In this document: positions 2,861 to 36,335 of the stretch, in pieces
Position numbering within the stretch: the stretch's first letter is position 1
Layout: every line of letters starts with the position of its first letter
Assembly: GCA_008632985.1 (NCBI GenBank)
Contig: QPGO01000019.1
Span: forward strand, 186,001-250,000
From: Psammoneis japonica
Lineage: Eukaryota
Reading direction: 5' to 3'
Length of the DNA stretch: 64,000 nucleotides
The notes under the pieces: generated by a model
What the model was told of the DNA's origin: nothing
The model's input: only the letters and a program-made list of their open reading frames with translations
Databases searched by the model: none
Translations under genes and position numbers: made by a program

Positions 2861-2995
2861 TTCCACCATGCACTGGGGTTGCTCCCAGGTGTGGACCCTC
2901 CTTCGTCCCCTGATGTTTTGGAACTTTGATCCCAAAGCTTCCTGCCAATCTGACTTCAAATCTGTTGCTGTTGACCCCTCAAGCAAACTGGGGAG

Positions 2996-3333
2996 TGACA
3001 GGATTTGAACAAGATTTTAGTTTGTCACACACAATTGTGTGTGCTTTTAGTTCCATGCGCGACGGGCGATGCAGTTTGCTTTCAAGCCACATGGCTCACA
3101 AGAATGACAACAGCAGTGCCAATGTCACGACACCAGTCTTTTGGCTCCTGCAATGGTCTCTGCACAGAGACTCATCTGCTGTTTAGACAGCAGCAAGGGG
3201 TTGTTGTTTTCTTCCACCCAGTCATCTTCATTTCCTGACAACACCGTTGTGGATGGGTTCCAATCCCAGGTGGGACTCCGTGTGACATTGGGCCCGTGGA
3301 ATTCTGCGTGCGAGCTCTGTGTTAAAATCATCA
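2996..3333 (+). repeat. Probable 3' LTR of the decayed copia
   Basis: Purine tract GGGGAG immediately precedes TGACA at 2996; candidate ...ATCATCA end near 3333; partner LTR is outside the window so the end is unverified. Confidence 0.45.
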
Positions 3334-4260
3334 ATCAATTGAAACATGTGTGATTGCCAACAGAAAAAGAGGCAATTTTACGAACGCATCTCCTCCTTCA
3401 CACTTGGAGCACATGAACAACAGTTTGCATGGGTGTGTTCCACAGACATTGAAGAACATGCCCAGCGCATTTTCATTGTCACAAATGTTGAAAATAGAAA
3501 GCCTTTGGCTTCGCAAAATGGGAAGTGTGAAACAATTTCCTAGAATGTCACACGCAGCCATCTGCGTGCGCGACATGCGGCACGATCCAAAAAACCATTG
3601 ATGTCACAGTTCAGTGCTGCGAGGTCCCACCCAGAGCTGGAACACTTCACCCAGGAGTGCTTCTCAACAACAAAATGGGGTCAGAAAGTTTTGCGCCTCA
3701 TTTGCATGTGTCGTTGCATGCTTTCTGAGTGGCAGTCAAGAAAGCAATCATCAGAGAACAAGATGAGTGGTTGCATGCCCTTGGAAACTAAAGAGCGATG
3801 GCACAAACGGAGTCGAAGCACACCCCGTTGTGTGCCGCTGTTTTGCAATCCCATTCTCCCAGCCAGCCAGCGAGCGAGAGTGGAGCACAAAGCACTGAAA
3901 CAAATCAATTTTGAATGCTGCAGTGCCAAGAAATGCATTGCTTTTCTACGCACGTGGCAACAACAGGAATCATTCGGGTCCTGAGAGTCATCACGTAGAA
4001 ATTGTGTGGGAGAGCACCAAAAATAATTATCATCAGTCTGTCCATCCATCCGTATATGAATATTGTCACAAACATCATTCAGCGACGCTCTCTTCATTTT
4101 CGCTTCTTGATTGTTGGCATTTAGGGAAGGAACGAACGAACGGTGGCACATTATTTCATGCAATGCAGTAAAAGCACTCCAGATGTTTCTTTAAATAACT
4201 ATTCTTCACCATGCATGACATTACTTAACAAACTTTCGTCAGCTCAGCGTCTTGATTGTT

Positions 4261-4457: not shown

Positions 4458-7400
4458 ATGTTTGCCAGTAGAGCAGTTCTTCTCCTGCTCGCTGCAGCTT
4501 TTGCTCCGCAGAGGAGCGGCGCTCTAAAGGTACCGACGGATGAATCGAGTGTACTTTGTTTTGGAGTGCTTTGTTCTTGCTTCCTTTTTGATTACTCACC
4601 AGGTTTTTCCCTCTCCGTATAAACTCGTTGTACAAAGGGAATAGAAGACTACTTTCCTCCTCAACAAGAAGAATACCTTCCGCTTGATCCTTATTCCCGA
4701 ATGCTGAATGACATGGGCGAACCCGAATTTGATACTATGCAGCCGTGTTTGGACGCCGCAACTCCCGGAAACCCTTCGTGCACAGCAGGTGATGTTGACA
4801 TTGCACAAGCGACCGTGACTGAAACCACTGGTTGCGTCGATGGCATGGTCACTTTTAACGTGAGCATAATGGTAGCCGTGACTGGAATGGGGGGGGACCG
4901 CCACGACATTGGCATTTTCTTTTCAGAAAATGCCACGATTGGAGACGCTCGAGGCGGAGACTCCTGCACCGTGGTCACGCCTCCATATGGAAATGGTGGA
5001 TTCTTTGATTTGGATATGACCAACGACCAATTTATTGATAACAATATGGTTCCCGGTATTCAAGACGAATGCGGGGACATTGCAGATGGCAACAACATTA
5101 CTTTTTCGGTTGAGCTCACATTTAACTGCACGGACAACACGTTAGATTTGCCGTATTGCGTTTCCTCTTCTACGCCGGGAAACAATAAACTTTGCACGGT
5201 CCCCGTGGAAGGTGAAGTTGGTCTACTCGAGTGTTTTTTTTAATTTGGTTGCTCGGTCCCATGCTTCTCAGTTTCTTACATGTCTGCTTACTTTTTCCGC
5301 TATCTCTATCATCTTTTGTAGCGTACCCAAAGCCAGGCTCCAAGTGTGTGTGCAATGAGACCTTCTCGTTGGACGTTAGTCCAATCACTCCAAGTCCAAC
5401 TCCTGCGCCGACGCCGTCTCCGACTCCCTCTCCTACCCCGAGCCCAACTCCGTCGCCCACACCTGCGCCGACGCCGAGTCCAACTCCAGCACCGACGCCT
5501 TCTCCCACCCCGAGTCCAACACCTGCGCCGACGCCGTCGCCTACTCCAGCGCCAACACCTGCTCCTACCACGAGTCCGACACCTGCGCCGACGCCTTCAC
5601 CTACCCCGGCTCCAACTCCTGCTCCGACACCCAGTCCAACTCCTGCTCCTACCCCGAGTCCAACCCCTGCTCCTACACCAGCGCCAACGCCGTCACCGAC
5701 CCCTGCTCCTACCCCGAGTCCGACGCCGTCCCCTACACCAGCGCCAACGCCGTCTCCGACGCCTGCTCCTACCCCGAGTCCGACGCCGTCCCCTACACCA
5801 GCGCCAACGCCGTCTCCAACCCCTGCTCCTACTCCGAGTCCGACCCCTGCTCCTACACCAGCGCCAACTCCGAGTCCAACCCCTGCTCCTACACCAGCGC
5901 CAACGCCGTCTCCAACTCCTGCTCCTACACCAGCTCCTACCCCGAGTCCGACGCCGTCCCCAACACCAGCGCCAACCCCGTCTCCAACTCCTGCTCCTAC
6001 CCCGAGTCCAACCCCTGCTCCTACACCAGCGCCAACGCCGTCACCGACCCCTGCTCCTACCCGAGTCCGACGCCGTCCCCTACACCAGCGCCAACGCCGT
6101 CTCCAACTCCTGCTCCTACACCAGCGCCAACGCCGTCTCCGACGCCTGCTCCTACCCCGAGTCCGACGCCGTCCCCTACACCAGCGCCAACGCCGTCTCC
6201 AACCCCTGCTCCTACTCCGAGTCCGACCCCTGCTCCTACACCAGCGCCAACTCCGAGTCCAACCCCTGCTCCTACACCAGCGCCAACGCCGTCTCCAACT
6301 CCTGCTCCTACACCAGCTCCAACGCCGTCTCCGACCCCTGCTCCTACCCCGAGTCCGACGCCGTCCCCAACACCAGCGCCAACCCCGTCTCCAACTCCTG
6401 CTCCTACCCCGAGTCCAACCCCTGCTCCTACACCAGCGCCAACGCCGTCACCGACCCCTGCTCCTACCCCGAGTCCGACGCCGTCCCCTACACCAGCGCC
6501 AACGCCGTCTCCAACTCCTGCTCCTACACCAGCGCCAACGCCGTCTCCGACGCCTGCTCCTACCCCGAGTCCGACGCCGTCCCCTACACCAGCGCCAACG
6601 CCGTCTCCAACCCCTGCTCCTACTCCGAGTCCGACCCCGTCTCCAACCCCTGCTCCTACTCCGAGTCCAACCCCTGCTCCTACACCAGCGCCAACGCCGT
6701 CTCCAACTCCTGCTCCTACACCAGCTCCAACGCCGTCTCCGACCCCTGCTCCTACCCCGAGTCCGACGCCGTCCCCAACACCAGCGCCTACCCCGTCTCC
6801 AACTCCTGCTCCTACCCCGAGTCCAACCCCTGCTCCTACACCAGCGCCAACGCCGTCACCGACCCCTGCTCCTACCCCGAGTCCGACGCCGTCCCCTACA
6901 CCAGCGCCAACGCCGTCTCCAACTCCTGCTCCTACACCAGCGCCAACGCCGTCTCCGACGCCTGCTCCTACCCCGAGTCCGACGCCGTCCCCTACACCAG
7001 CGCCAACGCCGTCTCCAACCCCTGCTCCTACTCCGAGTCCGACCCGTCTCCAACCCCTGCTCCTACTCCGAGTCCAACCCCTGCTCCTACACCAGCGCCA
7101 ACGCCGTCTCCAACTCCTGCTCCTACCCCGAGTCCGACGCCGTCCCCTACACCAGCGCCAACGCCGTCACCCACTGTGCGGAAGGGCGCTTGCTGCCCAC
7201 TAGCTGGATCCAATAGGGTTTGCTTCAAGGGAACTGAAGAAGAATGTCTTTCAAATTACGGACTCTGGCAAGGAAACGGCGTAACGTGCGAGGACGCAGA
7301 TTGCCCGACGTCACCTCCTACAACCTCTCCGACAAAGAGCCCTACCATGGCTCCAACTACCCCGGCTCCTACCATGGCTCCCACTACGCCGGCTCCAACC

Positions 7401-8841
7401 AAAGCTCCTACACTGCCCCCAACGAAAGTTGATCAGAGTCCTGGTGCATGCTGCACCTTGCTTGATGGATGCAAGTACCTTTCTCAGGAGACGTGCGCTT
7501 TGGGCGGTGGTACATTCACGAAACCAAACCAAAAGTGTAAGGACACTGAATGCCCCAACAAGGGAGCTTGCTGCTTGGAGGATGGGTGTAAGCGAACCTT
7601 TAAGAAGGAGTGTACCAACCAAGGAGGCAAGTTCCAGGGATTTGGCGTGCAATGTGAACTCGGCTTGTGCCCGACCAAACCACCAACTCCGGCTCCTAGC
7701 ACCGCAGCGCCTACGCAAAAACCCACCATTACTCCTCCTCCGACTGGAGCGTGCTGTGATGTCATGAAGGATGAATGTGAACAAACCGCAGAAGAAGATT
7801 GTGACACGGGCGTATTTTAGGACTTGGAGTCAAGTGCAAGCCGGGCATATGTCCCACAAGGACCTCTCCCGGAGCCTGTTGCCTCAAATCTGGAGAGTGC
7901 CGTTTCTGGTCTCAACAGACGTGCGCTGCCAACGGAAACTTCTTCTTGGGTCCTGGCACTTCCTGTAAGAATGTGGTGTGCCCAGTCAAGAATCCAAGCC
8001 CTACCCTGCTCCTGACAAGAAACCGTTAGGGGCCTGCTGCTTTGACAGTGGACTATGCCGCAACCTCGTTCCTGCCGTGTGCAGGAGGAAGTATGGCAAG
8101 TTCATCGCCATTGGTACCATGTGCAAGGATGACAACACCTGTCCCATTGGTCGCCGCGGCAAGCCTGGTGCATGCTGCTTGGTTGATGTAAGGAAATGCA
8201 AAACTCTCCCTGAGAAGAAGTGCATCAAGAAGGGCGGGCATTTTTCTGGCGAAGGTGTCAAGTGCAGCATGAAATCGTGCCCTGCCGCTCATGGTGCATG
8301 CTGCTTGCCCAATGGGTCGTGTGCCGTGTTGAAGAAGAACACTTGTGTCAGGATGAAGCATGGAAAGTTTGTTGGATTCGGAACTAAGTGCAAGAAGAAT
8401 ACCTGCTCCTCTAAACCGGGAGCTTGTTGCTGGAAGAATGGCAAGTGCATGTTGTTGAAGCAATCCAAGTGCTACAGGCGTGGTGGAAAATTCGTGGGAG
8501 CCGGTGTTAAGTGCCGCAAGAAGACTGCCCCAAGAGTCCTGATTACAGGTAGTCTGTACCCCGATTGAGGGTGTGGAAAAGGTGCGTGCTGCTTGCCCAA
8601 TGGATCGTGTGCCGTGTTGAAGAAGAATGCTTGTGTCAATAAGAGCAATGGAAAGTTTGTCGGATTCGACACCAAGTGCAAGAAGAAGACATGCTCCTCT
8701 ACACCCGGTGCCTGTTGCTGGAAGAACGGCAAATGCATGGTGTTGGAACAGACCAAGTGCTGCAGGCGCGGAGGAAAATTCGTGGGAACCGGTGTCAAGT
8801 GCCGCAAGAAGACCTGCCCCAAAATCCCTGATTACAAGTAG
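4458..8841 (+). CDS. Large secreted protein: signal peptide, acidic Cys-containing domain, long Pro/Thr mucin-like stalk, multiple GACC cysteine repeats, Lys-rich C-terminus
   Basis: [22 protein letters not shown] leader; GT-AG introns at about 4530-4602 and 5212-5321 (the second joins in frame to AYPKPGSKC); (TPSP/TPAP)n; repeated GACC-x-C...GGxFxGxGxxC units; several single-base frameshifts in homopolymers; frame just after intron 1 unresolved. Confidence 0.8.
5387..7175 (+). repeat. Coding 12-bp-unit tandem repeat (TPSP/TPAP) with higher-order duplications
   Basis: Recurrent blocks such as ccagcgccaacgccgtctccaactcctgctcctacc; frame slips near 6061 and 7043 each lack one C in a C-run. Confidence 0.95.
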
Positions 8842-9599
8842 TTCACTCCCCCATTAACGGTGTGAAGACCATGGATAAAATACCAAGTTGAGGGGTGTGG
8901 AGGACTTGGAGAATTGCCATGTTGATGTTTTCGACATTGCAAAATAAATGTTAATGTCTATCACATTCGTGTTGCAATTATTGGAAGTGGATGCAGTGTC
9001 ATGCACTTGCAGCACCAACAACAATTGACATTAGCAAGTTGCTAAACTTCCACCAAAAAGTGGAAACACATGCAGATAAACGCAAAAATTAATTATCATT
9101 TTCATCACAACACCTCCACACCACTCTCTGCCTCTTTGGTGTCATTTCTCATAAACCAAGCAACGCCCAGAGACGTCCAGGGGCGTTTTAGAATCGCACT
9201 CACATGCTCTGTTGATCCACATTGCGAAATGCTGACACTGGCATGTGTCAAGAACAAGAAATGGCGAAAATTGACTCTCACACATCGGCTGTTGTTGCCT
9301 CCTGAAGTCCATGACAATTGTTTGTTTGTGACAAACACCTCTTCACCCCAAAATTGCCCATCAACTTACAATTGCCTTTTGTGTCTCAAATGATGCCATG
9401 TGATTGGCATTGTTGAAAACAATGGGCTGCAAACAATGTTGAGGAACCCACCGAGTGCACATTTTGTTGCGGAAGAGCAACTGGCACGGACCATTGCTTG
9501 GAGAAATCAGCAATCCATTGCTGTGAAGGTTGACCCAATGGTGCAGCATTGCAATGAACATGGTTTTTAACAGGCCATCATCTTGTTTGTTCAGATTGG

Positions 9600-10560
9600 A
9601 TTGGGTCCAAATGCCATCCAAGTTGGAGCTGGCAAATGAAGTGCTCCAACCTGCGCAAGCAAGCGGGTGAGCTGCATCTTCCTCGGGACACTGAAAGTCC
9701 TTCAAAGTGTCAAAGACACTTTGATCATTGTCTTCTGCATGGAGAGACTCTGGCTGAAACTGGCAATTGGATGACAAGATCTTGCATTGGATGCAAGCAA
9801 TGCATGTGGACGATGTGGCACACCAAAGTTTTAAAGAATGTTGTGGATGAGGAACCTGGGCTGCATTTGGGTGAACTGGTGCTAAAAATAAATGACATCA
9901 CTGGCAAAAAGTGGAGTTCAAGTCAGACATGGAAGAAACTCAAAAAAGATGCAGGGCACTCACTCAAAGTCATGACAGACAAGGCCATCAAAATGGACAA
10001 GGAACAAAGGGCCTGTTGTCTCAATGCTTTGCAAGCTGCGGCTCTTCAACCCAAGATGTCAGTTCACTCATGTAAATGAGTGTCTCACAAAGACTGAAGT
10101 GAAGCAAGACAGCAGCATTGGTTTTCAAAAAGGGGCAAAATTCCTGTTTGGTTGCGTCCCACATGATGGACAAATGTGCTTGGCATTCGTTGCTTGCTGC
10201 TTGTGACATCAATGGTCGTGCAAAGGAAGCATGCAATGTTGTTCAGCATGGCAACTCAAGAGATGAAGAGAGGGGTCCAATTGTTGGAGCTGTTGATCAG
10301 GGCATTGTAAATTGTGGGTGAAAGAGAAGCTTCTTCTGTGCCTTGGTGACTGAAGTTTGGGAGAACCAAGGTCCATTGTGGTGCTGGACAATGTGTCAGT
10401 GCACCATTCGGGCTGCATTGTCAATGTGATTGAAGCCATGGGGGCTGCAATCATTCATTCTGCTCCATGTTTCCTTGATCTAAATCTGATTGAAATGACA
10501 TTTTTGGTTTCCACAAGGTGCACTTGAAGCATCATGGGAGTGCCAGGTGGTGCAAGCATT
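9600..10560 (+). mobile_element. Decayed Tc1/IS630-family (DDE_3) transposase
   Basis: 10363-10497 translates EPRSIVVLDNVSVHH...IIHSAPCFLDLNLIEM (family pattern VxDNAxxH...YxxPYSPDLNPIE); upstream HTH-like HLGELVLKINDITGKKWSSSQTWKKL; in-frame stops. Confidence 0.8.
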
Positions 10561-12922
10561 GTCTCAATGCTCTTGACAGCATCACCCCTGCAATGGCTTG
10601 TTCATGATGCAAACATCAACAGACTTAGTTTTCTTGCCTCCTTGCTTGTGTGGCAGAGCATTTCCTGTGCTTTTAATGTGCTTCTCTTCAACTCTGTTGT
10701 CTTGTGCCAGCCTCTGTTTGGCAGCAAGAATGACTTTGATTTGTTGCCAATGTGGCCACCCTCTCAACAATTGTGTGTCAATCTTGCAGGGCCATGGATC
10801 AAATTGCAAGCTTCAAAGAACATCTTTTGACAAATGATGCAGTGTTCACACATTGATGCAGACTTGGGTCATCTTTGTCATCAGCAAAATTGCACTCGGG
10901 TTCTGTGCACTCATTCAGATTGTTCCCATGCTCTTGCTCAAAAGCCAGACATGGTGGGATGTCACAGCTCATCTCGTGAACCTTTGGGGTGTGCTCCTTT
11001 GTCTCATCACTGTGCAGGAGAACTGCGGGGCCAAGCATGTCAACACTGAGTTTGGTGTCACAATCCTGCATGGCCCACTTGGTCTTTGTTGGCTGTGATT
11101 GTGGTTGTTGTTGGCAGCACCACCATGTCCTCTGCTTCTCAAAATCCTCTTCTCCTTCTTTTTCTTGTGCAGATGACAACAGCAAGAATGTGTTGGTTGA
11201 CCCCAGAGCTGTTGTGGTTCAATTCTTGGCAAGCAACGTGGTTGAGTGCATTGTGGAAGACTGCGTCATTGCTCAAAGCCTGCAGCTTGATTTGCTTGTC
11301 TGCCAAAGGAACAGTCTTGAGCTCATTCAGTGCAAATTCTTCAGAATGTGAACAGATGGCAACTCCTGAACTCTCTGACCACCTCTCAAATTTCAAGCTT
11401 CTTTCCTTGTTGTGTCCTGTGCTTTGTCAAAAACCTCTGCTCAATGTCTTGGAAATTGGAGCTGCAATGGAGCTCATTGTGTGCATCATTGTCCAAGAAG
11501 AAGTCATTGTTGAATTTCTTGGCCTTCCTTTTTCCAATGGTGGCAGAAAGTTGGAGGACTGCAGGAATGTTTGTGCCCATCAAAACTTTCCTCTTTGCTT
11601 TTATTGTCATTGTTTTTGACAACCCCTTCAGACTTGACCACTGCAGAAATGGCATCAAACAACAATGTGCAGCAGATGTGACATGTCTTGCACTTTGCAC
11701 TTGTTGCTCAAACAGACCTGTTGCAGCTGTTGCACTCAAAAGGGTTTTTCTGTCTGATGCATCATGCAAAGTCAATGTGCGAGGTGGCCAAACTGTGATT
11801 CTGCTGTGGGAGCATCCAGTTCCCAATGTGTTCCAATCAAAATTGGGCACCACATTGTGTGATCCAGGCAGAGCCACACCTCCCATTGATCATGATTGCC
11901 AGATGACCAGAGGTGCACAAATTGTCTGTTGTTGCCAAATGCGTGATGCGCTGGTGACAAAACAACAAGGTGGGCCATGGGCACAGACCTTCTGCCCAAG
12001 ACCTGTCATGATCATGTGCTGCATCTGAGAGAATTTCTGTGGAGCAAAATTGCAATTTTTGCAATTCACCACCATGCACAAATGCACTCGGCACAACACC
12101 CTTGGCATCTGCATTCCAGCATGCCCAACAACTTCACCACTTGCATCAACACAATGCAGTCTGCACCACATGCCAAGGTCAAAGATTCTGGCATGTGGCC
12201 AGTGCCAACACAATTGGAGCAATTGCAAACAATTTTGCAAAGAGATTGCTCAGTGCTGCATTGCTGCCAATGTTGCACATCCATTGTTGGGTTGTTGCCA
12301 AGTTCAAGAAGGAAACACCACTGTTGCATTGAGAGCATCATTTGTTTGGTTGCCAGGACAAGGATTCAAGGGAAAAGGTGAAATGGTTGTTGCAAGAAAC
12401 CATTTTTGCCTGAAGTTGATGGAGAGGAATGGAGTCCAGAACTCCACGCATCTTGCTGTGGAAGATGGAGTGCATGTTGAGTTGGATCCCTTGCCTGGCG
12501 TCAGAGGGAACATTTTGCCAACTGAACACTCCCATGGACTTGGGTGCCACTTGCAGTGTGGGTGTTGTGCATGAGTCTGAGCATTGGTGCAAACAACAGA
12601 AACTGTGGTGCATTGCCCTCATGACAGCCCATCAGCTTCAACTGCAACAGGTCCATTGATGATTCCTGTGGCAACAGCACAAGAAACAGACAACAAAGTC
12701 CATGAGAGAGCATGTCTTTGACATTTGGCTGTGCAAGCCACAAAGTGCAAAATGCTCACAACATGTGAGCTCACAAGGCACACACTCACAAGCTGTGCAC
12801 GCAAAATTCTGCTTCACCCAAACAGCAGCTGAAATGAAACCCATTGCAACTGGCAAATGTTCCCTGTGGCAACGGCACAACAAACAGATCACAGAATTGG
12901 TGGGAGCTTTTCTTGGATGCAG

Positions 12923-13147
12923 CATGCCACCCCGCAAAAGAACTCCGGAAAACCAAATTTACACAGAAGCAGCACCAGGGCCCCTGCAGAATTGCCAAAA
13001 AAGTCCGGAATGTCCAGAAACTGTGTAGAATCCAGTGTAGAATCAGCACCAGGGTTGTCAAACAATGTTGTTTGGTGTTTCCACTGGGGATCTGGTGCCT
13101 CTTCTACGTAAATTTGTCACTCCGGAGTTCTTTTGCGGGGTGGCATG
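12923..13147. mobile_element. MITE-like element with about 70-bp imperfect terminal inverted repeats
   Basis: CATGCCACCCCGCAAAAGAACTCCGGA at 12923 is the exact reverse complement of the right end at 13147; similarity continues inward. Confidence 0.8.
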
Positions 13148-14029
13148 TTGACATCTGGGTCATGAACAACACAAAGCACAAAAATGAGTTCACAAGAGGC
13201 ACAAGCAGCCACCATTTTGCTTCACCCAAAACACATGCAACCAAACAAACTTGGCTTTGAACAACTCACAAACATGTTCTGTGGCACCAACGGCACAAGA
13301 AACAGACAGTGGAGTCCATGAGAAAATTTCTTGGACATTCAGCAGTCCAAGTCATAAACTGCAAAGCAGAAGAAGCATCCTCACAAATCATGCTCACCAT
13401 TTTACTTTGCCAAACAACAGATGCCACCACACCAATTTGGGTTCAACTCACAGCAATGGCGCTGCCAGACACCTTTGACATGCTGTCACTTGTGACATGC
13501 TTCATGCCAGGAACGCACAATCACCAATGAAAATTCACAATGAGAGAAGCCAATGACAAAATGCCTGATGGCAAACATGAAAAAAAAAAAGAGGGTGCAA
13601 GTCTAAATTGCACATTTGCTCCACAACCTGCCTTGGTGCTGCTGAACTTTGCTCACCATCATAAATTGAGCAGATGTCACAGATTGCATGAAAAGCATCA
13701 AGTTGAGGCATCACTGCTCTGCTTTTGAGGTGCATCTTCCTGAAGTGCTGTTGATGCACCATGCTGTTGTGCAACATTTTGGTGACAATCAAAGCATTTT
13801 TTGCCCAGAAAAAATCTCTCACGTGCAGCACATTGTGACAGGCAGAAGTGCCAGCATGATCCTGACAGAATGCCAATGGCATGAGCAACATGCCAAAGAG
13901 CTCCCTGCAAACTGGTGACAGTGGACAACACATGTGCCAGCAAGAAACAAGTGAGAGAAAATCTCACAAATGGTCTGACCATCATCCATGCACAGTCTGC
14001 CCCACATGCCTCTGCAGGGTGGGTTGACA

Positions 14030-16190
14030 CCCTCCCCTGTGATCTGACATGTCCAGGAAAAGATGACGCAGATCACCAAACAAGAAAAAAGGGAGGACAA
14101 ACAGTCAACCAAAGGGGCACAAAAAACAGACCAGATGACTCCAGGGAGGCAGGATTCAAACAACATGAAACAATGAGGGCAACTCTGCAGATGCCAGCAA
14201 CAACAAATCAGTGAAAGAAATGTCCCATCATCTCATGGGCATGGCGGGCATGGAGTGTTGAGCCAGGAGCCTTGGTGAGGTCATCACTCAGGCTGACATT
14301 GCCAGTGACACAATGTCATGTGACAACATGCCTTGCATCATCCTTCCAGTCCTAAAAAGCACACCACTGGATGCCAATGTGGCAGGAGCACTTGGTCAGA
14401 ATTTGATTGATGATGATCTTGATGGCTGCAGTTTGTTGTCAATGAACAACAGGGTCATCTTGATGAAACTGAGCTCTCAAAGAACCAAGTGAAGATGCAA
14501 AACAAGCTTGGTGGCAGTGCCAGCAGCACAGAACTCTGCTTCTGTCAAGCTGGTGTGGTGATCACTGTCTCTGTCTTGCATCAACATGCTGTGGTGGCGC
14601 CAGCCAAGACACACACATGGCCAGCAGTTGAGTGATGGTTGTGAAGGTCATCACCACAAGCCGTGTCCAAAAAAGCAAGCAGCTGAGACAGGGAGTCCAG
14701 GGTCAGGAAAGGAAGCAAGGAGTCATCAGAGACAAGTCACTCATGTGAGTGCGGTGGCAAACAAGTGTCCTTGGATGGCTTGCAACAGCTGATGTCCCAG
14801 TTCTCTGTGCATCGGAGGCACTTGGCAACGCCTTTCAATGCCGTGCAACAGATGGGAGCTGGGTGCAACATGAACTTGGAGAGTGCAGTGATGGCAGAGT
14901 CAATCTTGAGACAACAAATCATGCAAGCATGTGACAACTCACAAAGAAGAGTGCAATGCCCAAAACCCTGTGCTTTCCTGCCAATTCATGATGCTTGGGT
15001 GTGCATTTCACAGGACCCCCTGTGCCAGAGCACAATTGAGAAGTCAAGTCAACAGGAACAGGAGCAGCCATGAAATCAGAGTTGACCTCATCTGCAGCAG
15101 GTTGCAGCCAACCATGCAAACAGAGGACCCAGTCAATGCATCCATGGCAGGCAAACAAGACAGAATCATCACATTGATGGATGTGTCCACGCCATTGAAT
15201 TCTGTGCAGAGACCCCAACACTTGAAGTCAGTCTTGGGTTTCCTGCCAGTCCAAGCCACCTTTTCAGCAGCTTCAACAGAGACAACTCCCTTTGTCTTGG
15301 GAGCCTTGGGCTTGTGGACTTTGGTCTTTGGCATCACTGCCCCACTGCCATTGCAGCCATGGCTTGAAGAGAGCAACGTTCGTCGGCCATTGTTGTGCCA
15401 TCTCCTGCAATGGACTCATCATCTGAGTTGTCCTCAGCATCCAGGTGGGGCCCTGAAGCTGGAATGGACTTGTCATCTGAATCATGGGGGTCCTGAGGGG
15501 GTGGATTGTCCTCTGGCGGAGGTTGATCCTTGGGAGGCTGGTCCACGAAGATCTCGGGGCAGTCAGCCATGTCCGACAGCACGCTTGAAGATGTTGAGTT
15601 GGGCCAATCATTTGGGACATTCTCAATCAAAGGACACAAGCTCAGAGAACTCTCTTGGGCCTCAGGTGGGCCATGGGGTGGAGCAGGGCCTGAGATGGTG
15701 CACATGCAAAATCAACAACACACCTTCTGGTGGAGCCAGCTGTTCGGCTGACAGAGTCAGGCACACCAGTGCTTGACATCAAAAGCACGGAGCATGGCTG
15801 GAGGGCAGCAATGACAGCATCAGATCCATGGATGGTTGCACTGGTCTGGGTGTCCCCATGCGGAAGCACAGAATGTGTTAATTTGCCCCAGTTGGGCGAG
15901 CCGACCAGCCGAAGCGCTTGCACGTGCCCATGGAGCTCCTGCCGAGTGCGCCTCTTCCCACAATGCACTGACTGGATGTGGAATCCAGACCAATGCCTCA
16001 GGCAGAGTGCAAGTGGAGAGCAACTGCCAACTGGCAATGACCAGCACTCAGTCAGAAGTCTTTCACCAAACCATGAGCCACCTGGACTGAATCTGCTGAG
16101 TGTGCCAAATGGGAGAGGTTCATCGGTGCACTTGCACCAGAGACCAGTGCAAGTTTCAGGGTTAACCACTTTCACAACAATCATCCTAGT
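14030..16190 (-). mobile_element. Heavily mutated, internally deleted Ty1/copia element
   Basis: Minus strand: IDSAITALSKF..HPAPICCTALKGVAKCLR (RT end), SLTEAEFCAA..KLVLHL (RNase H), SDDLTKA..LHARHA..MMGH (pol end); purine tract AGGGGAGGG at 14038-14030 followed by TG; acidic Pro-rich gag-like remnant at about 15330-16180. Confidence 0.8.
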
Positions 16191-16430
16191 GCTGCTGAAC
16201 CAATCTATGGTTAGTCCAGTGTCTGTGCATCACCTATGATCCTCGAAGCAAGCGGTTTGAGAATCGAGACGCGTGGCGCGAAAATAATTTCAATCATAAT
16301 TCCGACCGACAGAAGTACAGACACAATAGAGAATTCGGGTCGGTGGACAGACGACCCACGACTCCTCGCACGCACGCACGCACGCACAGCATCGTCGCCA
16401 AAAAAACAGCTCCAAGAAGCGCACCACACA

Positions 16431-17564
16431 ATGATGACGACCCGCTGCCGATACACATCAAACGCCATGACAATGACAAGACCAGTTTTCCTTTCAGTGG
16501 CTCCAGTTGCTCTAGTTGCTTATTGTGTGCTTGTTAGCCTGTCGGATCCGAGGAGCAAATTACAACACCATGAGCTGGTGCAGAAAAAGATCGCACCTTT
16601 TTCGCAACACAATAATGAAACCACGTCATTAATCCAAAACGATCTCAGCGCAGAATGTACCTCACAATCCTCAAAAAAGGAGAAATCACTCAGTAATATA
16701 CAGATGCTATCTCTATCAAGAGATAAATTCATGCTGTTGCACATTGGAAAAGCCGGAGGCGGTACATTTCGAGACCGAACAACTCGTGCATGGCGGATCA
16801 AACCCAGAGAATGTCATCCGACTCCTTGTACCAAGCGCTTGGTGTCCGATACGGCTGCATTATTTGTCATTACAATTCGAGATCCGATCGATCGCTTTGT
16901 TTCGGCCTTTTATTGGCGAGACCTTGTCCTCTGCAATCCACACGGCGATGATCGCGAACCGGGTTATCCAGGAGGCGGTCCCTACACGCATTGTCAGAAT
17001 CATTCTCGTGTGCGTGCGGAGCAGGAAATTATTTTTGACAAGTACGAGCGAAATGCAAACCTCTTGGCAGAAGCCCTTTGCGATGATTCTACTGCGGCGG
17101 ACGCCAGGATGGATTTGAAACAAATTGTACACGCTCGATTTTCCATAGAGGATTGGTTGGGAATCGACTGGTGGAAAACAGCAGCACCGTCCATTATGCC
17201 AGTTGTGCTGGAGGAGAATTTTGACTATTATGCTCAAATTGATGATGCGGTTCGTTGGATCCATAATCATACAAGATTCTTCAATGCGTCTGACTTTGCT
17301 TCGCGACAAGCCAATGTTGTTCAAATGGATTGCAAGCAGAAGAGGAACAATGCCCCTCGCACGTCCCCGTCGAGACTTCATTCTTCCGTTACAACCGACA
17401 AGTATCATGCTCCTCTATCACCCATGGGTAAAAGGTGTCTTGCACAGTACTACCGTGCAGATTATGAGATTTTGCAAGACTTAAAGGAACTAGCTTGCAA
17501 GACTGACGTTTGTCGATTGGCAATCCAATCCATCCTTACGCGTCGAGCCTCCTTGTTGGCGTGA
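16431..17564 (+). CDS. Membrane-anchored sulfotransferase-family protein
   Basis: N-terminal TM segment; 5'-PSB-like LHIGKAGGGT and 3'-PB-like IRDPIDRFVSAFYW; C-terminal YYRADY; intact ORF. Confidence 0.8.
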   Translation: MMTTRCRYTSNAMTMTRPVFLSVAPVALVAYCVLVSLSDPRSKLQHHELVQKKIAPFSQHNNETTSLIQNDLSAECTSQSSKKEKSLSNIQMLSLSRDKFMLLHIGKAGGGTFRDRTTRAWRIKPRECHPTPCTKRLVSDTAALFVITIRDPIDRFVSAFYWRDLVLCNPHGDDREPGYPGGGPYTHCQNHSRVRAEQEIIFDKYERNANLLAEALCDDSTAADARMDLKQIVHARFSIEDWLGIDWWKTAAPSIMPVVLEENFDYYAQIDDAVRWIHNHTRFFNASDFASRQANVVQMDCKQKRNNAPRTSPSRLHSSVTTDKYHAPLSPMGKRCLAQYYRADYEILQDLKELACKTDVCRLAIQSILTRRASLLA

Positions 17565-18199
17565 TGATGGAAGAAGCTCATGTGCTGTATTTCTTTGCAT
17601 TTGCTTAGGATGGCCAATGTTAGAAGAGCATTTTTTGTGAACCTGACTGGATGGCTCTTACCAATGCAAGGATGGTATTCTTGGTGACTGCCATCATGGC
17701 CTGACACTAGCTTTCTCTCCAGAGTAGAAGTCACACCATCTCTCTAGCAGCGCGGCAATCCGACAGAAGGGTTCGATTTGCAAGAAACTTCTTCTCTATT
17801 TTAGAAAAAAGCAGAAATACGGAAAATAGTCAACGCAGGTGCAACACATGTCAATTCTTTTTCTGAGCACATCATTTAGAACGACTGCGAGCCCGCAAAG
17901 AGCTCCATGACTATCCCAGCTGCCATGCGGTAGTTAGAGCCAGCTTGGGTGGCACCTCATGCAATGTAGGTACAACAGAAGATCTTTAAAATGAAACATT
18001 CTCATCACGCGTGTGCTGGTTAGGCTCTCACGTCCCAATTTCTCTTTGATGATGATTGAAACGTTTGCGGTCTTTTCGAAATTTTCCTACGGTGATCTTT
18101 CCACTCTCCCATCTTGAATCCTCATGCACAGCTGCTCTTGGCATCCATGTTACAAAGTTGACATCTCTTTCATCTTACTTTGGCACAGTTGTTCATGGA

Positions 18200-19570
18200 T
18201 CTTATGGGCACTTGCGCATTCCTTTGAATTTGGGTGGAGCTCATTTTTGTTGAAGCAAAGAGTGACAAATGCCCAGAGTGATGCCGGCACAGATGACCCC
18301 AGCATGTGCACAGTTTTGCACCGACAGCCCGTGGACTTTCATGCCAACGCCACTCAAAAAATTCAAAAAGAAAGACTGTGAGCACAAAACCATGCAAGAT
18401 GTGGTGGTGACCAAATGATTGTGCCCTGCTGCAAATGGACCCCCATCAGTCCATTGGCTTGATTCCTTTGCATTCTCAAGGACTCAAGATCAACATGTGT
18501 TCATTGGACACCCCAGGGAAGAAAGAATGGCCAGTTTTGTGTGTTCTGGCAAAATCCAACCTGCAGATCCACTCATTTGCCCTGAGCCTGGTGAAAGGTG
18601 ACAATCAAGTTGCAAAGGAGGCAATGAGAGAGAAGTTTCAAAACAGCCACAATGTTTGACATCATGTGCATCCCCACAGTTTGAACAGTGCATTTTTGGG
18701 TGGAGCACCAGCTGACAAGCTTGCAATTTTGTTTTGAATCAAAAAATCAAACACAAAAACACAAGAACAAAGGGTGTGTCAGCCAATGGATTGGATCAGC
18801 TGCAACATGTTTTTGTTGGAATTTTCTTGAGCAAGAACTTTGCAAAACAGCTGCTGGTCACCTGTCGCACATCACAACCTTGACAGGTGCTTTCAGTGTT
18901 CTGCATTTTGACTTGAAGGAGTTCTTTTTGGTTGTGGCAGCAGTGCCAGCACAGCAGCAACAGCAGAGTGGACAAGAGTTGGTGGCGCATTGATGGAGAG
19001 CACAAGACAACTTCTTGTTGGTGAGACATGTGCTGTTGTTCCATGTGAGCAAGAAAAAAAGTGTTGTTGGCTTCTGCTTGACCCAGCTGCAGGAGTGCTG
19101 CTCTCCAAAACTTGCAGCATGGCACAAAAAGAGCAGTGGCTGGCAGCCACCTTGATTTTGTTGTTGTTGTTTTGTTGCACGGGAGATTTGCTGCTGCACA
19201 CAAGAAGTGGTGGATTTTTTGCAGGCAAACCATTGCTTCTTGCTGCTGGGCTGTTGCAGCACCCGCAACATTGTTGCTTTTTTCTTGGGGACATCAAGCT
19301 CCACACTCTTGGTGTGTGTGTGCTGACAACAGAGGCCGGTGATTGTCTTGTTTGGAGAAAGTGCGGGTGCGCTGGCTTGTCGTCTTTGGAGAGAAAGTGC
19401 GCGCGCCAACACGCCGCGCCACACTTTGCTCCTGTTGCAGCAGAGCACTTGTCGTCCAGCTTGTTGAACACAACAAGAAGAACAGACTGCTCTGCAACAT
19501 CAATGTGTCCACATGGCTGCAATTGTTGTTGTTGAAGCAGTGCTGAGAGCGCAACAGTCATCATGGTTGC
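18200..19570. other. TpA-depleted domain, unidentified decayed repeat
   Basis: Essentially no TA; TA-rich sequence resumes abruptly near 19580. Confidence 0.85.
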
Positions 19571-19918
19571 GTCTCTGTTTTTAGTTGAGAATGTTTTCTC
19601 GGAATGTTGAGGAATTTGGAATTCCAAAGAAGAATTCGTAGGTAAAGATATGCTCAGGTAGAATTCTACATACACATATGCAGTTTATAGAAATGGAGAA
19701 GCGAATAAAAAGATATGAATACCGCGCCAAATTGTGGTTGCGTAGAAAATATACGGTGTGCTACGACAGAAGTTGCCTGCGGCAGATGCACCGCGCATGC
19801 ACGACGGCACTCTCGAACTCCAGCACCGGCAACAACAACAACCCACAACAGCGTCCCTGTTGCAACAACAACAAAACAGCGTCTATTACATTACAACAAC
19901 AACCACAACACTACAACC

Positions 19919-22911
19919 ATGCCATTGTCGTCTTCATCATCATCGTTTCAAATGGACTTTGGACACGTCTCTATAGGCAAACACAAAACTCTAACAACAA
20001 CAATCACGCTCACAATTGACTCCAAGCATGTCTATCTCGGTCATCAGTGGAAATGGTCTTGGAAAAAGCAAGTCGAACGTTTTCATGTATTCCAAGACAA
20101 AATTGTTATTCATACCAGCAACAAAAAGGAAACCGTCACCATGATGCATCCCCAGCAAGAGTTGCAAGAACTTGCCAGATTTTTACAAGAACGTCTCTCC
20201 AAGCATTCTGAAAAGTGGGAGATTGACAATGTGATTCCCAAACCGCAACACGTGGAGACGAAACATACGGCACCAAAATCACATCACCGTGGCCGTCCAC
20301 GCATCTATGGAAAGCACCATAAAGTGCAAACGCGTCGTCGTCATCATGGTGAAGAAGACGCAGTGTCGTGGCCATCCAAGAATCATACAGCATACAACGA
20401 ACAAAGGTTGAACTTTGACTACGAGTCGTCTGAGAAGAATCATGAGAATCATCCTACAGCCCGAGATTCTCTCACTTTCAACAGTGACCAGGATGAAACT
20501 GATTACACAAAGCCTACTTTGGTGAGAGACAAACCGACTACGGTCAAGAAGAAACGCAATCGTCTACACCAGCGTGATGTGGAGGAGAGCGATAAAAGTG
20601 CTACTAATACAGAGAGCGACTCCTCAAAGAATGATTTGGGCTTTATGGACTTTACTAGTGACAATGACGAAACGAACGACTTCGACAAGCACCGTCGTCC
20701 TCCCATTGTCGTTCAGGACAAGTCCACCGTCAAGAAGAAGAAACGCAAGCATAATGTGGATAGCGACAGTGACGTTGTTCCGTCCACGACCATTACCTCG
20801 CTCAAGAAAAAGGGTCGACTTGTATCTCCCAAGGATGCAGTGACGGAAGAAGAAACCAAGTTGGAACCGGCTTTGGATGAGACTAGCAGCAGCAAGCCCG
20901 CAACGATTGTCCGTTACTTTTCCAAAGCTACAAATCATCAACAAGAGAATACTGCTACGAGTGAGGATACAACTACGACGACGACGAGTGAGGATACAGC
21001 GTTGACTTGGACTCGTCGTCCAATCGCGAAGACTCCAAGCCGCACACCATCACCGGTGCAATTCATTTCCAATTCTGCTGCGCATTCACCCACCAAGCAG
21101 CCTCTGACGCAAGAATCCGACTGGCTTCACACCCAATCGGAATCCAAACAGCGACCGCCTCGTACGCCTCGCAAGCAACTCCAGTATTGGTCGCCACCTC
21201 GACACCAAGACCAAGACGAAATTGTGGATGATGATTCACCACCACGTTCCATAATGATGAGTCGTCGTCGTGGTGGTCGTATGTTTGCACATCGTGGTAA
21301 AATCATGGCAAATTCATCATCCACGGCAGACTTGGCTTTATCGTCGTCCACGCCCTTACGTCGACGCCGTCACCATGATTTGGTATGGACGGATCCTAAA
21401 TGTTCGGCTCGCCGTCGTCGCATGCTGGATAATGACCACAAGTCCTTGTTGCATCAGCCGTCACAGCGTCGTTCGTTTCAAACAACACAAAATGTCGCTC
21501 GTGGATTGCGCAATTTGGGTAATACGTGTTATCTCAATGCCACCGTACAAGCCTTGAAGAGTGTCAAGGGTCTTGTGGAGCATTTGGAAGAGTTGCATGA
21601 CACTACTACAAAACACGACTTGCCACTCATTTCGGGTTTTGTGAGTATTTGCAAACAATTGGATGACGACAGTACAATGCTGTCGCCCGTGGACCCTTTT
21701 ATTCTCAAGCAAGCCATGGATGGATTTTCGCAACACTTTTTGGGATTTCAACAACGTGACGCACACGAATTTATTTCGGAACTCATTGATGGAATGCATC
21801 AAGAACAAGTCGATCTTGGCAAAAATGAGAAGGACAGTAGTGGAAGTAGTGATGAGAGTCGTGGGGAAAAGGCGGAAACAGCGGAGGATACTGCTGCTGC
21901 GATTGCGGACACGAGTAGTGGAGGTGATGGTAAAGAGAAGGAGGACGAGACAGAAACAACGGAGGACAGTACGGAGAACGTCGATGACTCGTTGAAACCG
22001 TCCGTGGTACAGGACTACTTTGGTTTGGTTGTCAAGGTTTCCCTCACGTGTGATTCGTGTGGATACACCCGGTACGACAACAACGACTCTATTTTTCTAT
22101 GTTTACCATTGCTTTCTAAGCTTACCCTTTTTACTTTTCCTCTTTCTATCGTTAGATGCAAGAATGAAATGTACCGTCACTTGTCGATTGACGTGCAAGA
22201 CAAGGATTGGTCGATTGACGAGGGATTGAAAAAGTTCTTTTCCAACGAGGAGCGCCAAGTCACGTGCGAAAAATGCAAGGACGGAACGACGGCGACACAA
22301 ACCATGCAAATTGTATCAAGGTATAGTAGTAGTAGCTAGAATGATTTACAATGTTGATTTTGCGTTCATGACACTCATGCTATTCTATTTTTCAAACTGC
22401 AGGCCCAAGGTGCTCTTGCTTCATCTCAAGCGATTTGCCATGGTGGAAAAGCCGAGACGACCGGCCGCTGGGGAGGGTGACAATAATAAGGAGAATCAAC
22501 CGCCGCCCGAATTGACGGTTCGCAAAAATCGGGTACGAGGAAATAGATTGCGATTGTACAATTTCTTTTATTTGTTGTTGTTGAGTTTACTAATGAGTTT
22601 GTTTCATTCCGCAGGCCCCAGTCGATATTCCGGGGGAGGTGTCGCTGGATCCCTTTTACAGCAACGACGAGGCGACCAACGACGGGAACGACGACAAGGG
22701 AGTAGCTCGCATGCCGGCGTCGCCCTTTCAACTCTTGTCGGTGGTGCACCACATTGGAAGCACGGCCTTTTCGGGGCATTACACGGCGGATGCACGTCGC
22801 GCCGGTGGGCAGTTTGTAACCTTTGATGATACCAACACGTGCAACACGGCACGGAATGACAGGAATCTTCAAACGGCATACATGGTATTGTACGGAGAGG
22901 GGTTGCCGTGA
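19919..22911 (+). CDS. Ubiquitin-specific protease (peptidase C19) with long disordered N-terminus; 3 introns
   Basis: Cys box GLRNLGNTCYLNA, QQRDAHEF, CxxC pairs, LLLHLKRF, His box VVHHIGS..SGHYTA, FDD; GT-AG introns near 22072, 22321 and 22533. Confidence 0.92.
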
Positions 22912-25990: not shown

Positions 25991-26488
25991 TTACGCAAAA
26001 GCGCCAGTGCTTTGCTCGGCCGCTTCCATGGCTTGTTGCTGCATCACCTTGTGTTCAAATTTGCGAACGGCTCTCTTTTCTCCTGTTCGGCAAATCTTGC
26101 GTGTCAGAGCGGCACCACCCACTCCTCCGAGGATGGCACCGACCGGGCCCAAGGCGAGTCCACCCACGACGGCACCTCCAACCGTCCCCCCGGCGGTACG
26201 ACGACGGCGTTGGCGCTTCATTTGAGCCTTCCTCGGGTGCTTGGGATTGATGATATTGTCTGAAGAAGGACTGTAGGATGTCAGCTCGTTTCTTGGTGAT
26301 ACTGTAATGGCTGTAGGAGCATATTGATTGTAGTAGTAATCATCGTCGGAGTGTGCCGAATGTGTGGATGAAACCTCCGAGTGGTATCCAACCGACGAGG
26401 ATTCTGCTGGAACAGAGTAATTGTTGTAGCCTTGATCATCGCGAGTGGCATAGGCAAGGTCGTAGGGGACGAGAGCATTTGAGGTCAT
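25991..26488 (-). CDS. Hypothetical protein with glycine-zipper segment
   Basis: Intact ORF from MTSNALVPY; GGTVGGAVVGGLALGPVGAILGGVGGA after a basic patch; normal TA/CG content. Confidence 0.7.
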   Translation of the reverse strand: MTSNALVPYDLAYATRDDQGYNNYSVPAESSSVGYHSEVSSTHSAHSDDDYYYNQYAPTAITVSPRNELTSYSPSSDNIINPKHPRKAQMKRQRRRRTAGGTVGGAVVGGLALGPVGAILGGVGGAALTRKICRTGEKRAVRKFEHKVMQQQAMEAAEQSTGAFA

Positions 26489-26936
26489 GGTTGAGAGAGA
26501 GAGGGAGATTGAGTGATGTAAGAAGGAAGTGTCTTGGTCTCTGTTCTTCGTCAACGACGTGAAGTGATGCGAGAAGATTGTGAGCGAGCGAGTTTCAAGT
26601 TCTTTTGCGGTTCTTTGCGAAGACTGCACGGGGACGAAGTCGGAGTCGCGAATCAATTTTCAAACGGTCAAATAAATATGGGTAGTCATACGGTACAGTA
26701 GATGTTGATAACCGCCGTAGATCCTTGACATTTATGTACCAGCGAGCTCCGACCTCGCCAACATATACGTTAAAAGCCGTTATTTCTTAGTCGTGACGGG
26801 AATGCTTTCCCTCACATTTCGCGTGGAATTCTACGTGGAGAGCAACAGATGCTTGAGTCGTGTTGTTGAGTCGTTCTATTCAAAGGAGCAACGGTCGTGT
26901 CCTGCTCGAGTCGTTTGAAGACACGCCGTGTGAGTC

Positions 26937-28100: not shown

Positions 28101-28324
28101 TCTGGGTTGGTGTCTCGTGTCGTTCAATGGGTGTCACAGTCCAAGGACTGAGGACTGCTCGTTAGGATGACCTCGCACCAGAGCGCACAGCACTCTTTAA
28201 TTTCACCTGGTGTCCTCATTGCCTGCTGGCAAAGGAGGCTCAAGACAAGAACTCACGGCCGCACACGAACACTGCGTTACTTTGAATGAAACAAAGGTTG
28301 GGAATTTAGGCTGTTCCGAATCTT

Positions 28325-36280: not shown

Positions 36281-36335
36281 ACAAGTTAAGTCAATCGATC
36301 TTAAGCTCTCGATTCTACTTTACTTTGCTGTTACT

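Follow-up and report, generated by a model that had tools for sequence, protein, structure and literature searches.

Nearly half of a 64-kb window of genomic DNA from Psammoneis japonica, a probable diatom (GenBank assembly GCA_008632985.1, contig QPGO01000019.1, positions 186,001-250,000 of the forward strand; hereafter the window, numbered 1-64,000), lies in blocks from which the dinucleotide TpA (TA) has almost vanished. Comparisons with related sequences show that this deficit arose through A:T>G:C transitions at TpA on either strand, which left TpG (TG) or CpA (CA) in its place. We read the blocks as the product of a DNA-level process that converts TpA to TpG or CpA in old silent DNA, of the same kind as the hypermutation recently measured in integrated viruses of the chlorarachniophyte Bigelowiella natans (bioRxiv 10.64898/2026.01.13.699255), and we give this reading a probability of roughly 0.75. 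A preliminary description of the window, made from its letters alone, had proposed a repeat-directed mutator running in the opposite direction to fungal repeat-induced point mutation (RIP) and had thought it undescribed; that claim of novelty falls, as the preprint already reports TpA-only hypermutation, for a chlorarachniophyte with integrated viruses.

TA-poor blocks and their composition

Blocks were called from 500-bp sliding counts and from a segmentation with a ceiling of 3 TA in any 300 bp. Nine segments emerged (1-4023, 9095-16211, 18089-19648, 26993-28306, 28327-34779, 42418-44491, 52473-54351, 56816-59185 and 62582-64000), which sum to 28,209 of 64,000 bases (44% of the window) and nearly match the eight intervals of the preliminary description, in all of which the observed/expected ratio (o/e) of TA is 0.01-0.13. 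Block interiors hold 132 TA (o/e 0.07), compared with 1,417 outside (o/e 0.61), the outside norm having been computed without a tandem repeat at 5380-7420. Sliding counts of TA, CG and TG plus CA over the 64 kb recovered the blocks as both TA-poor and TG/CA-rich, with TG and CA at o/e 1.76 and 1.75 inside compared with 1.18-1.19 outside, and TA positions place the block edges within about 50-100 bp. The interval 8950-16180 contains 33 TA against 301 expected at the norm, together with 818 TG and 867 CA against 430 and 471 expected. Within it, the stretch 10681-12959 has a single TA (at 11602) where 98.5 would be expected at the local norm (Poisson P = 1.7e-41), a count that had been reported exactly.

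The same blocks are also depleted of CG (o/e 0.35 inside versus 0.97 outside; 72 CG in 8950-16180 against 411 expected from base composition), a feature that the preliminary description had left unmentioned. By 500-bp counts this loss is uneven, with o/e 0.03-0.25 in the parts most devoid of TA, whereas 27001-31000 retains CG at o/e 0.55-1.14 although its TA o/e is only 0.0-0.25. In a trinucleotide mass balance, triplets with TA or CG are down by 142 per 1,000, and triplets with TG or CA are up by 143 per 1,000. Other steps differ less between blocks and the remaining sequence: dinucleotide GC has o/e 1.25 versus 0.99, AT 0.83 versus 0.96, and the dipyrimidines TC 0.98 versus 1.09, CC 0.85 versus 0.88 and TT 1.22 versus 1.15, and AA shows no depletion in blocks (o/e 1.21). 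G+C content is the same or slightly higher in blocks (0.47-0.52) than outside (0.47).

Ancestral TA has become TG or CA

Block 1 (1-4023, forward strand; TA o/e 0.13, CG o/e 0.52) is a degraded Copia-type long terminal repeat (LTR) retrotransposon, truncated by the window start. Its polyprotein remnant (3-3005, forward strand) carries an RVT_2 Pfam match and was traced by tblastn with homologues; 150 homologues used as queries matched the window only there and in a young Copia element described below. Two metagenomic relatives of this element (L001 and L002) served as DNA-level references. At the 42 TA common to both, the window reads CA in 17 cases, TG in 17, TA in 4 and something else in 4, so that 34 of 38 changed ancestral TA are now TG or CA. 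Applied to the relatives themselves, the same test found TA kept at 33 of 49 and 33 of 51 sites (66 of 100; Fisher P = 2e-10). CpG decay is present as well: at 69 shared CG the window reads CG 25 times, TG 18 times and CA 16 times (34 of 69 now TG or CA). The remaining dinucleotides in the element are kept at 55-77%. Compared with the average dinucleotide, decay on the window lineage would amount to roughly 7-fold for TA and roughly 3-fold for CG.

The protein-level record points in the same direction. We defined conserved columns as those in which at least 60% of 59 full-length Copia homologues share a residue. Block 1 has kept only 2 of 10 conserved Tyr (now Cys at 4, His at 1, Phe at 2 and Ile at 1) and 4 of 12 conserved Arg (His at 5), compared with 98 of 115 for all other conserved residues (Fisher P = 3e-5). 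The open reading frame (ORF) at 1786-2913, whose homologues are 50-62% identical to it, contains only 0.5% Tyr, versus 2.9-6.8% across the 59 homologues, none of which shows such a loss.

A second dead gene, unrelated to the first, gives the same picture. On the reverse strand at 28358-29443 lies a pseudogene of a cellular family (about 380 aa, with a weak DUF3431 match) that has an in-frame TGA at an invariant Arg. Nine homologues align to it at 30-38% identity, across the in-frame TGA. None of its 3 conserved Tyr columns is kept, each now encoding His (CAY), and one Ile has become Met (ATG). This non-transposon sequence has therefore been changed by both T>C and A>G, and it lies where TA is low and CG still near normal. 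The loss of conserved Tyr (TAY) codons from two unrelated dead genes indicates that TA was formerly present. Given these losses and the polarised comparisons, the TA deficit reflects mutation and not native composition. The replacement of TA by TG or CA, as first proposed, is thus borne out by the polarised Copia sites and by Tyr loss in both genes. An excess of A>G and T>C at TpA over other contexts is likewise found in the copy-versus-relatives spectra of the block 1 Copia and of the environmental copy described next.

A TA-only spectrum in an environmental Copia copy

We surveyed 80 metagenome contigs (423 kb) that carry related Copia elements, giving 81 copies including that in the window. 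No 1-kb window of these contigs has TA o/e below 0.17, and the median of their minima is 0.55. Across 18 consensus-TA columns in the 81 copies, the median fraction kept is 0.83; the window keeps 2 of 18, a copy denoted L061 keeps 7 of 18 and another, L031, keeps 10 of 18. Loss of consensus TA is limited to the window, L061 and perhaps L031. The TA process is therefore uncommon among the surveyed Copia elements. L031 is perhaps a milder case, with 5 of 18 consensus TA now CA and none TG.

L061 was polarised against its relatives L048 (80% identity) and L052 (77%). At the 44 TA that these two share, L061 reads TG at 15, CA at 16, TA at 10 and something else at 3; 31 of 34 changed TA are thus TG or CA, and in the reverse control TA is kept at 10 of 12 sites (P = 2e-4). 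On the L061 branch, T>C occurred before A at 16 of 44 sites (0.36), compared with 0.05-0.12 before C, G or T, and A>G occurred after T at 16 of 44 sites (0.36), compared with 0.03-0.13 in other contexts (11 of 92 after A). CG is kept at 39 of 49 sites, making this a TA-only spectrum. At the protein level the conserved Tyr columns of this copy (located at L061:8-1926) read HYCYYHCHYYCHCY, and all conserved Arg columns but one are still Arg or Lys. The process therefore exists beyond this assembly and needs no CpG decay. The TpA excess in L061 is a long-term ratio to background and falls short of the near-exclusivity seen in the short B. natans experiment.

Some other copies serve as natural controls of the opposite type. 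Five of them (L013, L003, L006, L076 and L068) and the protein P0143 show CpG-only decay with TA and Tyr intact; this decay was recognised from a CG o/e of 0.22-0.24 or from Arg>His/Cys at conserved columns (in P0143 from Arg>His/Cys only).

Mutation in place and on both strands

Diverged duplicates within the blocks allow the timing of the changes to be assessed. Alignment of sequence recoded as purines and pyrimidines revealed three such pairs (scores of 71-109, versus at most 43 in shuffles): 12546-12754 with 13159-13368 inside block 2, 58658-58858 with 58883-59081, and, at about 440 bp, 62739-63178 with 63186-63584 in the last block. CA in one copy stands opposite TG in the other at 13, 5 and 15 places, respectively. 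Adjacent double transitions were likewise in excess; listed with the last pair first, then the 58658-58858 pair and the block 2 pair, they number 25, 18 and 25 against 11.4, 12.1 and 13.8 expected (P < 0.0005, 0.02 and < 0.0005). Such an excess is expected if each copy resolved an ancestral TA (or CG) independently, and it excludes the amplification of an element that had lost its TA beforehand.

Both strands were affected alike. TG makes up 0.43-0.53 of TG plus CA in every block. The autocorrelation between neighbouring TG and CA at lag 1 is -0.10 to 0.15 in blocks, compared with -0.08 to 0.09 in normal regions. At lag 2 it has already disappeared, and there are no strand-coherent tracts. Given this balance and the lack of such tracts, the process acts on DNA. 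Judged from composition only, the residual fraction of TA varies with the flanking base (ATA/TAT 0.04, GTA/TAC 0.08, CTA/TAG 0.15 and TTA/TAA 0.22), which tentatively suggests a preference for RTA/TAY.

Restriction to particular domains

Tests of domain restriction cover this 64-kb window. In ten host ORFs, TA steps that straddle codon borders (position 3|1), at which T>C is synonymous, have an o/e of 0.61 (188 TA). Three introns contain 6-9 TA each in about 83 nt, and ten intergenic spacers have a TA o/e of 0.49-1.20. A young, apparently intact Copia LTR retrotransposon (35915-42484, forward strand) also has normal TA, at o/e 0.57-0.79 across all codon phases. Since TA persists in the young Copia as well as in introns, in spacers and at synonymous codon borders, the process is confined to certain domains. 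Two statements of the preliminary description therefore stand: that TA is ordinary in neighbouring genes, to which introns and spacers can be added, and that mutation is targeted to particular domains of dead DNA.

The young Copia sits inserted inside a TA-depleted block. It has LTRs at 35915-36261 and 42138-42484, a target-site duplication (AACAA), and Pfam matches to Gag-pre-integrase, RVT_2 and related domains. Its LTRs are 99.7% identical over 347 bp; the sole difference between them, which is anecdotal, is a TA in the 5' LTR that reads CA in the 3' LTR. The TA-depleted block resumes at the 3' end of the element (42485-44491; 3 TA in 42485-44450), and its left part probably continues at about 35730-35914.

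Content of the blocks

Most blocks have no recognisable content. The focal block, block 2 (9095-16211; TA o/e 0.07, CG o/e 0.18), yielded no Pfam match in six frames and no homologues for its longest ORFs; a homologue search with the ORF at 14910-15773 found nothing, and atlas look-ups of 11321-12025 and 14910-15773 returned uninformative scores of 0.80-0.83. Its origin is without recognisable match, as are those of block 3 (18089-19648; 1 TA in 18200-19570) and of the block at 52473-54351, the latter delimited by dinucleotide counts. Six-frame Pfam scans of 9001-16200, 1-4020 and 18001-19650, together with a Pfam scan of the 150 longest of 178 block ORFs of at least 75 aa, gave only RVT_2 in block 1, the sub-threshold DUF3431 and a chance DUF6011 match. 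No viral domain was found in these 150 ORFs or in the six frames of the three scanned blocks.

The block at 26993-34779 is composite: from 27000 to 31000 TA is low and CG near normal, and from 31000 to 34700 both are almost gone. Two further blocks, recognised by dinucleotide counts and purine/pyrimidine alignment, contain the tandem duplicates described above, one at 56816-59185 and the other at 62582-64000, where it runs past the window end. Ordinary self-BLAST of the window showed no similarity from block to block, and the purine/pyrimidine-recoded comparison detected short internal duplicates only, with no LTR-like pairs above shuffled scores. The statement that every identifiable sequence in the blocks is a dead transposable element (TE) or pseudogene agrees with the degraded Copia at 3-3005 and the pseudogene at 28358-29443, with the qualification that only these two items are identifiable.

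Comparison with public sequencing runs

A public run (X1), possibly from the same sample as the assembly and with no library type on record, provides contigs that can be compared with the window. Over block 2, a 2,777-nt contig at 9161-11934 has 8 differences and a 1,048-nt contig at 11907-12954 has 1, which gives 9 differences in 3,825 nt across 9161-12954. In other blocks, contigs of 1,902 nt (17847-19748) and 675 nt (27203-27877) show none. Among the differences listed (40 of 126), none restores a TA. The summed depth of X1 contigs reaches 170-325 over 12670-14003 and 15338-16671, and 133 of the 273 contigs placed on the window match it at no more than 90-95%, from which it follows that the focal block is multi-copy in parts. 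The proposed check of TA at block sites in short reads has thus been answered in part: X1 contigs reproduce the TA-free sequence, and the library type behind them is unrecorded.

One cluster of differences lies outside the blocks, in the UCH gene at 21659-21676, where eight substitutions and two small insertions separate the window from the X1 contig; it looks like an allelic or strain indel region. A second run (X2), although labelled 'DNA?', contains GT..AG joints that skip 82-84 nt, and because of these it behaves like cDNA. In the gene that lies downstream of the UCH ORF, three introns are marked by joints at 22070-22614. X2 has no cover over 9335-16004, which does not count as evidence of silence.

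Proposed mechanism and alternatives

In the reading that we favour, the blocks would be old silent DNA, made up of a dead Copia element, one cellular gene copy that is likewise dead, duplications internal to the blocks and relics beyond recognition. A DNA-level process turns TpA into TpG or CpA there (an A>G change, which on the opposite strand reads as T>C), working site by site, on both strands alike and in place after insertion or duplication. In block 1 its rate would be several-fold above that of other sites and about twice that of CpG decay in the same element. Expressed genes, introns and spacers are spared, and the very young Copia is so far unchanged, except possibly at one LTR site. 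The window would then represent the long-term end state of the TpA hypermutation that was measured in real time in B. natans viruses. The affected domains are probably silenced chromatin, and CpG decay there suggests that they carry cytosine methylation. The two decays are separable, as TA is lost without CG loss both in 27000-31000 and in L061. The chemistry is presumably enzymatic, and the process may serve to inactivate mobile or foreign DNA.

Three suggestions of the preliminary description bear on mechanism. The idea that repeats direct the mutation finds no clear support: the targets include a pseudogene from a cellular family, the majority of the blocks defy identification, and in B. 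natans the target is a viral insert present in single copy (bioRxiv 10.64898/2026.01.13.699255). Error-prone repair of the pol-eta type (WA>WG) fits poorly and is unlikely because AA is spared (o/e 1.21), with A>G in L061 at 11 of 92 sites after A versus 16 of 44 after T. Its remark that no responsible enzyme gene is evident agrees with our Pfam scan, in which no deaminase family matched the window ORFs scanned (outside blocks, ORFs of at least 150 aa). We also considered UV-type damage and rejected it, as the dipyrimidine steps TC, CC and TT change little in blocks.

Several points weigh against the favoured reading. Its identity with the B. natans process is drawn from the mutational signature alone, and describing the blocks as mobile or foreign DNA extrapolates from two identified items. 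The TpA rate on the L061 branch is only about 3-7 times that of other contexts, which fits steady hypermutability as well as bursts of regulated editing. The RTA/TAY preference is unconfirmed in L061, where the few asymmetric polarised sites gave 5 for the rule and 4 against. Finally, X1 excludes a base-caller artefact only if it consists of short-read or HiFi data.

With respect to chemistry, adenine deamination in DNA by an ADAT/TadA-type deaminase, as the B. natans preprint proposes (bioRxiv 10.64898/2026.01.13.699255), would be the likeliest route, at somewhat below an even chance. Some chemistry other than adenine deamination or thymine oxidation is a serious contender, at odds that likewise fall a little short of even.

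Thymine oxidation is itself a less likely route. Here, a TET/JBP-type dioxygenase would oxidise T at TpA in silenced repeats to 5-hydroxymethyluracil (5hmU) or 5-formyluracil (5fU), and mispairing with G would yield T>C. 5fU does mispair with G. T>C at TpA describes the event just as well, and sequence data do not discriminate between the two descriptions. TA and CG losses also occupy the same domains, and the same enzyme class, acting on 5-methylcytosine (5mC), could contribute to the loss of CpG. TET/JBP homologues of dinoflagellates are reported to make 5hmU that is enriched on TEs and silences them, and older studies found T to be replaced preferentially in TA and TC (PMC11572971); mutants of TET2 are reported to convert T oxidatively into hmU and fU, an activity that is stronger in the vicinity of mC (PMC11804724). 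However, the loss of TA without CG in 27000-31000 and L061 makes any coupling weak, TC is not depleted here (o/e 0.98) and the dinoflagellate account, in its accessible part, has no mention of T>C decay (PMC11572971).

It is also conceivable, at a probability that we consider small, that TpA is hypermutable throughout the genome, much as CpG is in mammals, with the blocks being the oldest unconstrained DNA and selection holding TA in genes. The modest TA o/e of 0.61 and TG/CA o/e of 1.18 outside blocks would fit such a background, as would the 3-7-fold TpA rate on the L061 branch and, among the window-X1 differences listed, two in normal genes that are TA>TG. Yet weakly constrained introns, spacers and codon borders outside blocks keep their TA, block borders are sharp at 50-100 bp, and control Copia relatives retain 65-67% of shared TA.

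Editing of retroelement RNA before integration, with A-to-I changes made by an ADAR/ADAT-like enzyme and fixed by reverse transcription, is still less probable. In its favour, Copia retrotransposons account for both of the targets with the best documentation (block 1 and L061), and RNA adenosine deaminases usually favour a U on the 5' side (bioRxiv 10.64898/2026.01.13.699255). Editing of the copied strand, however, predicts TA>TG only, in tracts, against the observed TG:CA ratios of 17:17 and 15:16; duplicates within blocks changed independently after they had been duplicated; and the pseudogene, which has no match to recognised retroelements, was hit by both T>C and A>G.

Least probable of all is that modified bases were misread, or that the blocks are of foreign origin and lacked TA from the start. 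No library type is recorded for either the assembly or X1, but X1 contigs match the blocks at 99.7-100%, the same spectrum appears in a separate metagenome assembly (L061), the B. natans mutations are seen in Illumina data (bioRxiv 10.64898/2026.01.13.699255), polarised sites and Tyr loss show former TA, and differences between duplicates place its loss after duplication.

Other sequence in the window

Genes between the blocks encode, by Pfam, a ubiquitin hydrolase, an LRR/MORN protein, glycosyltransferases and an alpha/beta hydrolase. For a Deg-type protease (47932-48906), no near-identical protein is on record, and its best named relatives are in Pseudo-nitzschia, Ditylum, Amphora and Fistulifera. 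The reading of the source as a probable diatom, and as distinct from B. natans, draws on this one protein; the short GT..AG introns give the window a eukaryotic look.

At 5395-7170 lies a coding region of tandem repeats rich in Pro, Thr, Ser and Ala, whose periods are 36, 60 and 96 bp and whose copy number reaches 46; its G+C content is 0.67-0.68, and the dinucleotide AT has o/e 0.0 in 5501-7000. A Cys-rich region at 8004-9103, adjoining the focal block, contains a tandem duplication of 287 bp at 84% identity (also 8293-8868), has intermediate TA (o/e 0.35-0.45) and is covered by X2. A single 310-nt X2 contig at 26190-26499 has a word depth of about 4,000, versus 3-30 elsewhere. The ORF beneath it (25991-26659, reverse strand) has a sub-threshold C19orf12-like match only, and may be a very highly expressed small gene.

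Implications

A context-specific A:T>G:C mutator acting on silent DNA is the counterpart, in reverse, of RIP and APOBEC-type defences. Its targets include retrotransposons and dead cellular genes, besides viruses. The precedent so far consists of one preprint on one alga, and the probable diatom studied here belongs to a different eukaryotic supergroup and to a lineage of great ecological weight. An end product in a probable diatom together with the same signature on an environmental contig suggests more than a one-species oddity. A broader conjecture, towards which we lean less than against, is that TpA-directed DNA editing is an old and widespread arm of genome defence in SAR (stramenopile, alveolate and rhizarian) eukaryotes or beyond, which in diatoms would act on methylated silent chromatin through a natural adenine or thymine base editor. 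If so, a large share of the non-genic diatom genome would have been rewritten and the ancestry of old transposons and viruses erased, and the enzyme would be a chromatin-targeted base editor of double-stranded DNA. We know of no natural base editors of adenine (or thymine) in double-stranded DNA.

There are practical consequences as well. The enzyme can be hunted by matching the lineages that carry the signature to shared deaminase or dioxygenase genes. Any mechanism also has to account for the equal action on both strands, for duplicates that mutated independently and for a TA loss that is separable from CpG decay. For annotators, transposon or viral DNA altered beyond recognition may make up much of such genomes, and some of it can be recovered by reading TG and CA as possible former TA or by purine/pyrimidine alignment.

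Comparison with known systems

In the literature, we found no account of TpA-directed hypermutation other than the B. natans preprint, and the papers examined on diatom TEs make no mention of RIP, hypermutation, dinucleotides, TpA or deamination. Several known processes nevertheless share features with the one described here.

Deamination of the ADAR/ADAT type, known from RNA hyperediting, also produces A>G with a preference for 5' U or T. It differs in that it acts on RNA and is strand-coherent, whereas the changes in the window lie in DNA, in place and on both strands equally. 5hmU in dinoflagellate repeats (PMC11572971) and base J in kinetoplastids bear comparison as enzymatic modifications of T that prefer TpA, concentrate on repeats and transposons and are linked to silencing; they are, however, epigenetic marks and are not reported as a mutation process.

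CpG decay through deamination of 5mC resembles the process in the window as a steady, domain-restricted hypermutability of a self-complementary YpR step that ends in TG or CA. It cannot remove TpA, however, and related Copia copies affected by CpG decay alone retain both TA and Tyr. CpG decay thus accounts for the loss of CG only, not of TA.

RIP in Neurospora and other fungi likewise leaves dead transposons and duplications riddled with transitions in one context, with sharp borders, strong dinucleotide skews and mutation of both duplicate copies. It differs in direction: RIP makes C>T changes mainly at CpA, creates TpA and lowers G+C, whereas the process in the window destroys TpA, and G+C is not lowered (0.47-0.52 in blocks versus 0.47 outside). 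RIP was therefore rejected as the cause. As the preliminary description had argued, neither RIP nor 5mC deamination can remove TpA, and the observed changes run A:T>G:C. A duplication trigger of the RIP type is not inferable from the independent mutation of duplicates and the multi-copy state of parts of block 2.

The closest known system is that of B. natans, in which mutation-accumulation lines revealed two integrated viral regions that mutate about 1,000 times faster than the rest of the genome; 230 of 231 changes were A>G or T>C, all fell on TpA, and they arose in some lines only (bioRxiv 10.64898/2026.01.13.699255). The same preprint describes 124 clusters of TpA-poor, CpA+TpG-rich windows in about 95 Mb of genome and 324 TpA-poor coding sequences enriched in reverse transcriptase (RT) and DDE domains, and its authors (Mettrop et al. 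2026) propose an ADAT2-like DNA adenine deaminase that defends against invading DNA. Applying the 1-kb window thresholds of its cluster definition here, we found that 25 of 64 windows pass, forming three clusters of at least 3 kb (1-4000, 9001-16000 and 31001-35000).

The resemblance is extensive. In both cases A>G and T>C changes fall on TpA only and leave TpG or CpA, depending on the strand; they occur solely in certain regions of a sequence that is otherwise ordinary; and the clusters have mostly unannotatable content with some RT or DDE domains. On this signature, the process in the window would be of the same kind as TpA hypermutation in B. natans. There are also differences. The source is a probable diatom (a stramenopile) and not a chlorarachniophyte (a rhizarian), and the targets recognised here, none of them a viral gene, are a Copia relic and a pseudogene of cellular type, whereas those of B. 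natans are integrated viruses. Depletion is far deeper and denser in the window, with a TA o/e of 0.07 over 44% of the sequence compared with a Rho of 0.45 for the nucleocytoplasmic large DNA virus (NCLDV) insert of B. natans and with its 124 clusters in about 95 Mb. CpG decay occurs here in the same domains, and the accessible part of the preprint is silent on CpG and makes no mention of diatoms, stramenopiles or retrotransposons (bioRxiv 10.64898/2026.01.13.699255). Collectively, our observations extend the B. natans precedent by CpG decay in the same domains, a stage at which only TA is lost and the independent mutation of duplicates.

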